This document shows positions 27,001 through 30,000 of a stretch of DNA of 64,000 nucleotides, in pieces; the stretch's first letter is position 1; each line of letters begins with the position of its first letter. The DNA is taken from contig BTVI01000001.1 of NCBI GenBank assembly GCA_045862955.1, positions 1 through 64,000 of the forward strand, written 5' to 3'. A program made the position numbers. This DNA is from Fimbriimonadales bacterium. GTDB lineage: Bacteria; Armatimonadota; Fimbriimonadia; Fimbriimonadales; JABRVX01.

Positions 27001-30000
27001 CCGTAGAACGTGCCCTTGGAAGTAACGACCTTTGCGCGGCAGATGGCAACTTCGCCGTTCATCGGTCCGGGCACCTGGATCAGCTCGGTCTCGACCGAAC
27101 TTAGGCCCTGCGCATGCGCTTCGTCCAAGAGCCCCGCGTACAGCACGAAACTCCGCCCGCCACGGTCCACGATGAACTGCTTCTTAACCATCTGTCCCAC
27201 CTAGTAGACGACAGTATACTACACTCTGCGGGTGCTAGCCGCGGAACATCCTCGTGAGCGTGTCACTGAGCACCTGCGAGGTGTAGCGGACCAAAGAGAC
27301 CGCGGCAGCGTACCGCATCCGAGTGGGCCCGAGGACCCCGATGGTGCCCGCCTCTTCATCGCCGATGTAAAAGCGGCTTGCCACGATACTGCACTGGGAC
27401 AGCGAGTCCTGCCCGGACTCCGAGCCGATCACTACAGCGCTCTCACCTGTGGAGGACCAGTCCACCACATCCTCCAGCACCGAACCCCGTTCGAGCAGCG
27501 CGAGCACTTCCTCTAGCGAGGCGACATCGCGACGAAACTCAGGCTGCGCGAGTAGGTTGGCTATGCCATCGTGGATGGTAGCGCCGCGGGACAGCGAGCG
27601 GGCTGTCGCTTTGAGCTCACGAAACGCTTCTAGGGCCAGCTCGGCAGCTTGCGGCGGAAGGTTGGACGTGTCTGGCAGTTTGGCTCTGGAAAGCTGCCGG
27701 AGCGATCTGCCGGCGGCCGCGCCGGTAATCAGCTCGTTGGCCTTGCCCAAGTCGGTTATGCTGAGCGTGCCAGACGCGGCCACGGTGCGGTTCTCCACGC
27801 GGCCGTTGCTGAGCACGAGCACGAGGAGCACGCGCTCGGGGCCAACGGGTGACAGGATCACCTGCTTCACGAAGACCGAGTCGCCTGCCGCAGTGCCCGC
27901 AAGGGCGATGTAGCGGCTCATTCGAGCGAGTAAGCGACAGGACTCGGCCAACAGCGCCACCAGGTCGTCTCCGGAGCGCCCGATCTCTCGCAACCGGGCC
28001 CGCACGTCTGGTTCCGGGGCTGCCGGTATTTCGGAGTGGTCCACGAAGTAGCGATAGCCGCTGTCGGAAGGGATGCGTCCCGCGGAGGTGTGCGGCTGCT
28101 TCAAGTAGCCGAGGTCGCTCATCTCGGCCATCTCGTTACGAACGGTGGCGGGTTTCACATCGAGGCGGTAACGGTGCACGAGCGCCTCGGAGCCTACGGG
28201 CTCCGCGGTCTCTACGTAATCCTGGACCACCGCCCGGAGGATCGCCCACTTCCGTGCGCCTAGTTCTATTCTGGAAGTGTCTTTCGGTTCGCTCATCTCG
28301 TGAGATACCCGCCCGCCGCCGAGCGGCGGCGACAGCAGAGCCCCGATTTATTATACGTTGCGTGGAGGCGGTTCGGGGCGGGTGGTACTAGTCGAACTGG
28401 TCGAGCGAGGCGCGCGCGTCTTCGGTGCAACCCAATCGGCCTAGGGAGTGTAGGACTAGCGGGCCCGGCGACCGAGGATCTGGCCGGGAGGAAGGGGGTC
28501 CCGATGATCGTTCAGATCGTTCAGACCGGAGTACTCGCGGTGCTCTGGTATCTCTGGTGGAAGTGGCCCGGCAAGGGGATGGTGCGTTCGTCCTTCACCG
28601 GCGTCACGGTACGGCAGCGCACGTCGAGCGGGGTTGGCGTGCTTGCATGGAACGTAGCGTTTTTCTCGCTTCTGCTCTCAGTCTGGGGCGTGCCGACTTG
28701 GATCACCATGCCACTGATGATCATCGCGGCCACGATTGCGCTCGTAGTCTCGATTTGGGCAAGAAACCCGGAGTAGCCTGGGAGGAACAGTATCTGGCGC
28801 GCTCGAGAGGACTCGAACCTCCGACCTCCAGGTCCGCAACCTGATGCTCTATCCACTGAGCTACGAGCGCGCGCCTCATCGATCTTACCGCATCGGCTAA
28901 GACCCGTTCAATCGGGAGCGTGCAGTGTCGGCCCTGTCGCAGCGGAGCTTCGTTCCGAGTACACGCGGGCCGCGAAGTATAATCGGTCGTTCGGTTGACG
29001 GGAGGCTATCATGCATCGGACCATGCTCTTTGTGGCTCTCTTGGCCCCTCTCATCGCTCTCGCCCAGGGCCCGACGCCGGAGTCACGTCTCAAGCTGCAA
29101 GAAGCGGTTGCAGCGTTCAAGGCCGGCGACATCCAGAAGGCGCTCGCCGGCGCGGAGGCGGTGTACAAGGAGACCCCCGACGACCTGTCTGCGATGACGT
29201 GGTACGGGTACCTGCTCCTTCAGGCCAACCGCGCGAAGGATGCCATCGAACCGCTATCGCGCGCCGTGGAGCGAGACCCCGAGAACGCCGAGTTGCGTAG
29301 CAACCTCGGCAACGCATATCTTTACTCGAACGCGGTGGACAAGGCGTTGGAGGAGTACAAGAAAGCCGTCGCTCTGGATGCGAAGCACGCGGACGCTTGG
29401 TATAACCTCGGGAACACTTACATGCGATTGAAGGACTATCCGAACGCGGTACCCGCTCTGCGTAAGGCAGCCGAGCTGCGTCCCCAGGACCCACACTGCC
29501 TGAACAACCTAGGCTTCGCGCTGCAGCACACGGGGGACACCAGCGGCGCCATTCAGCAGTATCGCAAGGCGTCCGACCTCTCTCCCAAGAGCCCCGTCTT
29601 TGCGGCCAACGCCGGCGTGTTGTTGGCGCAGCAAGCTCAGTGGCAGGATGCTGCGACCTACCTGGCACGTGCTGCGTTACAGGATCCGAACGACTACAAC
29701 GTGCGCGTTACCCTCGGCCAATGCTACGCAAAGCTCGGAAAGCGACAGGAGGCCGCTGAGCAGTATCGAGCAGCGGCAACGCTCCGTCCCCAGGAGCCAG
29801 TCCCCCACTACAACCTCGGGTACCTCTATCAGGAAGAGAAGAACTGGGTGCAGGCAGCCGCGGCCTACGAGAGGGCGCTGGAGCTGCGGCACGACGACCT
29901 CGATGCACTGGGCAACTACGGAGTGGTGCTGTTTCGTTTGCAGCGATTTCGCGACTCGGCGGCGGCTTTCGAACGGTTGCTCGGGCTCAACCCGAACAGC

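Follow-up and report, generated by a model that had tools for sequence, protein, structure and literature searches.

The gene content examined here supports the view that this Fimbriimonadales genome, its order and 39 of the 48 sampled families of Armatimonadota decode the CGN arginine box with tRNA-Arg(GCG), tRNA-Arg(UCG) and tRNA-Arg(CCG), and do so without TadA. The window, by which we mean the whole 64,000-nucleotide stretch of DNA analysed, carries the first of these genes. By standard wobble, G34 reads CGC and CGU, U34 reads CGA and CGG, and C34 reads CGG. Under these rules tRNA-Arg(GCG) would serve CGC and CGU, tRNA-Arg(UCG) would read CGA and probably CGG, and tRNA-Arg(CCG) would read CGG, with no inosine involved. 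Both this mode of decoding in the cell and the charging of tRNA-Arg(GCG) are predicted from gene content and wobble rules. We consider it very probable that the explanation as a whole is correct, namely that CGN codons are decoded without inosine, that tadA once lay in an ancestral tRNA cluster, and that it was lost at least three times after a GCG gene had arisen.

The CGN tRNA genes and the tadA slot of this genome

The tRNA-Arg gene with anticodon GCG (U32, G34, G37) and an encoded CCA lies at 28795-28870 on the minus strand. It was called by ARAGORN and matched the full Rfam RF00005 covariance model (positions 1-71) with 68.8 bits against a gathering score of 29 (E 1.7e-14), confirming that the gene described in the initial annotation is real. 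Its folding energy (z -1.29) is not exceptional taken alone, so the evidence for the tRNA consists of the covariance model and conservation; its 70-position core is the same as that of the tRNA-Arg(GCG) of G138, a genome of another family. It is the sole tRNA gene of the window, with protein-coding ORFs on both sides. The neighbours at 27235-28296 (-), 29011-30462 (+), 30459-31331 (+) and 31471-33718 (-), which we take to encode HrcA, a TPR-repeat protein, NAD kinase, phosphoglycerate kinase and GAPDH, have no link to tRNA editing.

The identity elements of tRNA-Arg given in a passage of PMC13433404 are A20, C35, G36 and A/G73, and A20, C35, G36 and the discriminator G73 could all be read from the sequence of the GCG gene. 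Their presence argues against the alternative that G34 is an artefact, whether of assembly or of inosine being read as G, or that the tRNA is non-functional or not an arginine tRNA. So do the recurrence of the same anticodon, with co-varying stems, in hundreds of independent genomes and the codon usage of rpoB, in which all four CGN codons occur (14, 57, 17 and 18 times); CGC is the most frequent of them (57 of 106), and only this gene could read it. Inosine does read as G in cDNA, according to a passage of PMC10454642, and the unremarkable folding score would suit an artefact as well, but we find this alternative hardly credible.

The genome (3.36 Mb, 94 contigs, 62.7% G+C, 97.55% complete) yielded 64 tRNA calls with ARAGORN. 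After removal of 15 intron-containing calls, an 'ACG' call on contig C38, a tRNA-SeC and one duplicate tRNA-Ser(GGA), 46 anticodons remained, with G34, U34 and C34 tRNAs in all eight four-codon boxes, as had been claimed. The intron-containing calls (15 of 64) and those made at relaxed thresholds (363 and 2222) were discarded as noise. The tRNA-SeC (UCA) call lies at C2:120031-120124, and tRNA-Ser(GGA) was found at two contig ends (C12:12-103 and C22:57683-57774) with matching flank translation, probably representing one gene at a contig break. Besides GCG, the CGN set comprises tRNA-Arg(UCG) at C9:67791-67866 and tRNA-Arg(CCG) at C14:461-535, both called by ARAGORN. The 'tRNA-Arg(ACG)' call at C38:18258-18336 has an acceptor stem made mostly of G-U and mismatched pairs and lies inside a 557-codon ORF, and we agree with its initial dismissal as false. 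A scan of the genome for an ACG loop plus T loop motif gave four candidates, none of them tRNA-like on reading, and our tRNA-Arg(ACG) patterns found no match in this assembly, consistent with the reported set of GCG, UCG and CCG without a credible ACG.

With the TadA model NF008113, the best matches in the genome reached only 58 and 38 bits, and a profile built from 11 TadA proteins of the phylum, run against all six frames, gave 56 and 38 bits. The two best ORFs for the TadA model were identified as RibD (348 bits) and a ComEB-like deaminase (163 bits, under the cut-off of the ComEB family). On contig C62, tRNA-Arg(CCU) (1085-1160) is followed after 56 bases by tRNA-Ser(CGA) (939-1028), and the slot between them, which holds tadA in relatives, is empty. 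Since this empty slot lies on one contig with its flanking tRNAs still adjacent, tadA appears to have been deleted rather than lost in an assembly gap. The absence of TadA reported for this genome is thereby borne out, and the accompanying concern that the gene might sit in the unassembled part is very unlikely to hold.

Distribution of TadA and arginine tRNAs in the phylum

A sample of 351 Armatimonadota genomes from 48 families was searched four times. TadA matches at E<=1e-22 were obtained in 42 of the 351, of which 35 were over the cut-off; together with two further genomes just under the cut-off or partial, these make 37, all in nine families (f7, f12, f32, f38, f42, f43, f44, f47 and f48) that comprise 42 genomes altogether. 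None of the 309 genomes outside these nine families had TadA over the cut-off, and the order of the window genome gave no match at E<=1e-22 in 44 genomes, in line with the absence of TadA reported for its Fimbriimonadales relatives. The initial annotation had cautioned that a divergent TadA could score below the cut-off. Five genomes of TadA-less families do reach 83-96 bits to the TadA model, but in the two tested guanine deaminase was the best match (168 versus 85 and 121 versus 81 bits for the best TadA), and none of the five matches has a tRNA close by.

These weak matches, the draft state of the assembly and the frequency with which tRNA genes go unassembled would favour the presence of an ACG tRNA and tadA in this genome, either unassembled or too divergent to be recognised. 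We judge this to be very unlikely because all 46 other expected anticodons were assembled, the tadA slot is empty on a single contig, and single-contig relatives such as G138 and G210 gave no TadA match; the better match of two of the five to guanine deaminase and the want of tRNAs near all five point the same way.

The first ACG pattern matched 44 genomes, and on reading the matches were tRNA-like in 34 genomes of the nine families and in four of f15, and chance-like in six. This pattern missed a D-loop variant found by BLAST in f32 and f38; a second pattern, run on all 351 genomes, added five, so that a credible tRNA-Arg(ACG) was found in 39 of the 42 genomes of the nine TadA families, other variants being able to escape both patterns. 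Outside these families it was found in 4 of 309 genomes, all belonging to f15 and all carrying GCG as well. In three of these four the gene lies in an array, and the patterns found no other credible ACG outside the nine families. Arrays of up to 14 tRNA genes were seen in f15 (L032-L034) and at L296 and L297; three tRNA arrays carry tRNA-Arg(ACG) in genomes without TadA and would, if expressed, supply an unmodified A34 tRNA.

Of the 309 genomes that lie outside these nine families, 242 had a match to the strict ACG/GCG pattern. Nine of these were removed, their rows among the matches listed being only array-type, ACG or chance, and a looser GCG pattern recovered six of the nine and 30 of 49 well-completed negatives, 18 less complete negatives being left out of that search. 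This brings tRNA-Arg(GCG) to about 269 of the 309 genomes of TadA-less families, in keeping with the earlier statement that most other Armatimonadota carry it; about 40 of the 309 have neither ACG nor GCG by pattern. When one representative per family was taken, GCG was found in 37 of the 38 TadA-less families other than that of the window genome, and it was detected in none of the 15 non-f7 genomes of TadA families. TadA-less families account for about seven in eight of the genomes sampled, yet the phylum is mixed, and the bolder proposal that a whole phylum has given up inosine has to be withdrawn, as 9 of the 48 families (42 of 351 genomes) keep ACG and TadA. CGN usage in rpoB of 51 related genomes showed no difference between the 10 with TadA and the 41 without (U versus C, p 0.30; CGA, p 0.21).

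In family f7, possibly the Abditibacterium family, no UCG tRNA of chromosomal type was found in 27 genomes, the four rows obtained being two array-like and two chance-like. The one-contig f7 genome G046 gave neither an MnmG match nor a UCG tRNA, in which it differs from four other members of the phylum that were tested; MnmG was found in the genome of the window with 759 bits. A small accessory cluster (Cys, Asp, Arg) was observed at L006, L007, L014 and L016 in TadA-bearing f7 genomes. Its Arg gene has either GCG or ACG, depending on the genome, so that G34 and A34 forms occur alongside TadA.

Ancestry of the tadA cluster and origin of the GCG and UCG genes

RpoB trees of 59 and 41 rows, built from this single gene with quick searches, placed all TadA families within a single subtree, together with TadA-less lineages. 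Within it, TadA-less f16/22/26/35/46 are sister to TadA-bearing f48, and TadA-less f34 is sister to TadA-bearing f12 (SH-aLRT 100 in both cases). At least four state changes are needed on the RpoB tree, and a single TadA-less clade was rejected in an AU test of 22 of the 41 RpoB rows under LG+G4 (p-AU 3e-36), so that a single loss is not supported.

The cluster Ser(GCU)-Arg(ACG)-Arg(CCG)-Arg(CCU)-tadA-Ser(CGA)-Ser(GGA), which is found in full in G337, was most likely present in the ancestor of the phylum, alongside a separate Arg(UCG) gene derived from the ACG gene. Arg(CCU) immediately precedes tadA in 25 of 30 TadA loci of the phylum, and Ser(CGA) follows tadA in 8 of 30. Among 30 outgroup tadA loci scanned of at least 80 listed, Ser(CGA) follows tadA in 15, and the complete CCU-tadA-Ser(CGA) order occurs in four Bacillota. 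Of the 23 TadA-less genomes examined, 12 have CCU and, 13-105 bases further on, Ser(CGA), with no tadA between them. With TadA taken as ancestral by synteny, at least four state changes imply at least three losses, and the weak basal order (support of only 84 for the deepest RpoB branch) places the number of losses at 3 to about 6.

The same search was extended to 90 Chloroflexota genomes, drawn from the phylum of an Anaerolineae record with one unpublished genome left out. GCG was found in 77 and ACG in eight (one with both), and six had neither. Eight genomes had TadA over the cut-off, and seven of these carry ACG. A TadA-like ORF of 105-125 bits is kept in eight GCG genomes; the four of these ORFs that were translated (G449, G413, G369 and G404; L274-L277) occupy the tadA slot ahead of Ser(CGA)-Ser(GGA), and in all four the catalytic HAE is replaced by HAV. 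In one genome, G372 (L258, L259), GCG and a CCG-like ACG tRNA were seen with no TadA match at E<=1e-28.

The prevalence of GCG in Chloroflexota, where some 45-base matches lie one to three bases from the Armatimonadota ones, would suit a different history, in which TadA was lost a single time, no later than the root of the phylum and perhaps in common with Chloroflexota, and tadA and the ACG gene were later regained by transfer. The two earliest-branching RpoB groups are indeed without TadA, and in an unconstrained, poorly resolved tree of TadA proteins (63 rows, 152 columns) those of the phylum lie dispersed among outgroup sequences; a single clade of the phylum's TadA was, however, not rejected (p-AU 0.67). 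Regain by transfer is further opposed by the position of tadA within the tRNA cluster, which is the same in Bacillota, and by the adjacency of the flanking tRNAs in TadA-less genomes. It is also at odds with the nested TadA-less lineages, whose CCG-like GCG genes, unlike the U32 type, would have been needless had GCG been inherited from the root. We therefore regard a single early loss followed by regain as improbable and retain repeated loss from an ancestral cluster as the preferred reading.

To compare the tRNA genes, distances were taken over 70 positions with the wobble base masked, a mean-distance rule assigning 24 of 25 reference ACG and CCG genes correctly. All ten UCG genes compared are nearer ACG than CCG; the UCG and ACG genes of G008 are 4 of 70 positions apart, and those of f32 are tandem neighbours. 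UCG was found in 10 of 15 non-f7 genomes of TadA families and in 35 of 38 TadA-less genomes. The cluster Pro-Gly-Arg(UCU)-His-Arg(UCG)-Lys is common to TadA-bearing and TadA-less genomes, indicating that UCG is probably older than the losses. A conversion of the old ACG gene into UCG at the time TadA was lost was rejected, since UCG stands beside ACG and TadA in f12, f32, f38, f42 and f47. No UCG match was found in the fragmented assemblies of G337, G203 and G237; G337 is the nearest TadA-bearing sister of the first nested clade, and its result counts against UCG having come first in that loss.

In this first nested clade the tRNA order is Ser(GCU)-CCG-GCG-CCU, and the GCG gene differs at 6-11 of 70 positions from its own CCG versus 21-27 from the sister's ACG, suggesting that it arose as a tandem duplicate of CCG and not by mutation of ACG. 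CCG-like GCG genes, as opposed to the A34-to-G34 pattern, were found in five nested genomes. The GCG of f34 shows 8 differences from its own CCG and 11 from the sister's ACG, a weak indication of a CCG origin. For the lineage of the window, the comparison leans slightly towards an A34-to-G34 change in the old ACG gene, as its U32-type gene has a mean of 17.6 differences to the ACG references and 20.5 to CCG.

With UCG reading CGA, I34 would have been needed just for CGU and CGC, which an unedited G34 tRNA reads. We propose that, after a GCG gene had arisen, the ACG gene and tadA were deleted, at least three times in the phylum, with GCG derived from a CCG copy in the two nested losses (in f34 weakly so). 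On a fuller account, which we favour with some reserve, a free-living and mostly GC-rich phylum abandoned inosine decoding on at least three occasions, possibly six, by a route other than that of Mollicutes. An ACG-derived UCG would have come first and made TadA redundant, a G34 tRNA would next have been taken into use, arising in one nested clade as a tandem duplicate of CCG, and tadA would have been cut from the ancestral cluster. Family f7, with no UCG of chromosomal type found and no MnmG in the one genome tested, would be locked into TadA.

Relation to known decoding systems

The decoding strategy itself is already known, and the Armatimonadota case was not found in print. We found no report of arginine decoding in Armatimonadota or Chloroflexota, although the supplement of PMC6063277 or Rafels-Ybern et al. 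2019 could tabulate it. The main text of PMC6063277 (Diwan and Agashe 2018) mentions neither Armatimonadota nor Chloroflexi, while its supplementary table may list members; passages of PMC4041420, PMC13433404 and bioRxiv 10.64898/2026.05.15.725136 hold nothing on Armatimonadota or Chloroflexota, and the sole paper found that combines Armatimonad, TadA and tRNA, PMC9758169, is apparently the description of an Eremiobacterota isolate. What the present genomes probably add is a set of sister lineages with both states, an empty tadA slot and a route through CCG duplication.

Two statements of the initial annotation need correction in light of the literature. Life without wobble inosine had been described as so far documented for Mollicutes, but GCG replaces ACG in all sequenced Thermotogae and Spirochaetes according to a passage of PMC8007984, and parts of PMC3711424 (Yokobori et al. 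2013) describe the GCG strategy in Borrelia, Treponema, Campylobacter, Helicobacter and Thermotoga and tie it to moderate or low G+C. In our hands a T. maritima control likewise failed the TadA model at E<=1e-22. A34-to-I34 editing had also been called essential, whereas TadA is dispensable in Bacillus subtilis, as a passage of PMC10454642 states.

The genetic code is unchanged and no new chemistry is involved, but the findings counter the idea that wobble inosine goes only in small or AT-rich genomes. Passages of PMC6063277 report repeated inosine loss in bacteria from five sister-clade comparisons and put forward the hypothesis that a gain of additional tRNAs precedes the loss of the modifying enzyme, which drift then brings about. 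With closely related sister lineages that differ in TadA, this hypothesis can be tested, and one can ask why most bacteria retain I34. TadA is further described in part of the literature as editing mRNAs in other bacteria, so TadA-less lineages should be without any A-to-I editing.

A parallel is found in Chloroflexota, a neighbouring free-living phylum with GCG in place of ACG and the same tadA slot before Ser(CGA); there a TadA-like ORF without the catalytic glutamate has been retained in some genomes, whereas in TadA-less Armatimonadota the gene was deleted. In Spirochaetes, Thermotogae, Campylobacter and Helicobacter, as far as the cited passages go, a G34 tRNA replaces the A34/I34 tRNA across a large lineage, as it does here. 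Armatimonadota differ from those groups in being mixed (9 of 48 families keep ACG and TadA), so that sister pairs with both states exist, and in having genomes that are mostly GC-rich and not reduced. The Pneumoniae group of Mollicutes has, in the account excerpted from PMC3711424, reached the same end state of GCG and UCG without TadA, but by losing CCG and tadA first, gaining UCG later and making GCG by an A34-to-G34 mutation. In the phylum studied here, by contrast, CCG has been kept, UCG occurs alongside intact TadA in five families, and the GCG gene of at least one nested clade appears to be a copy of CCG.
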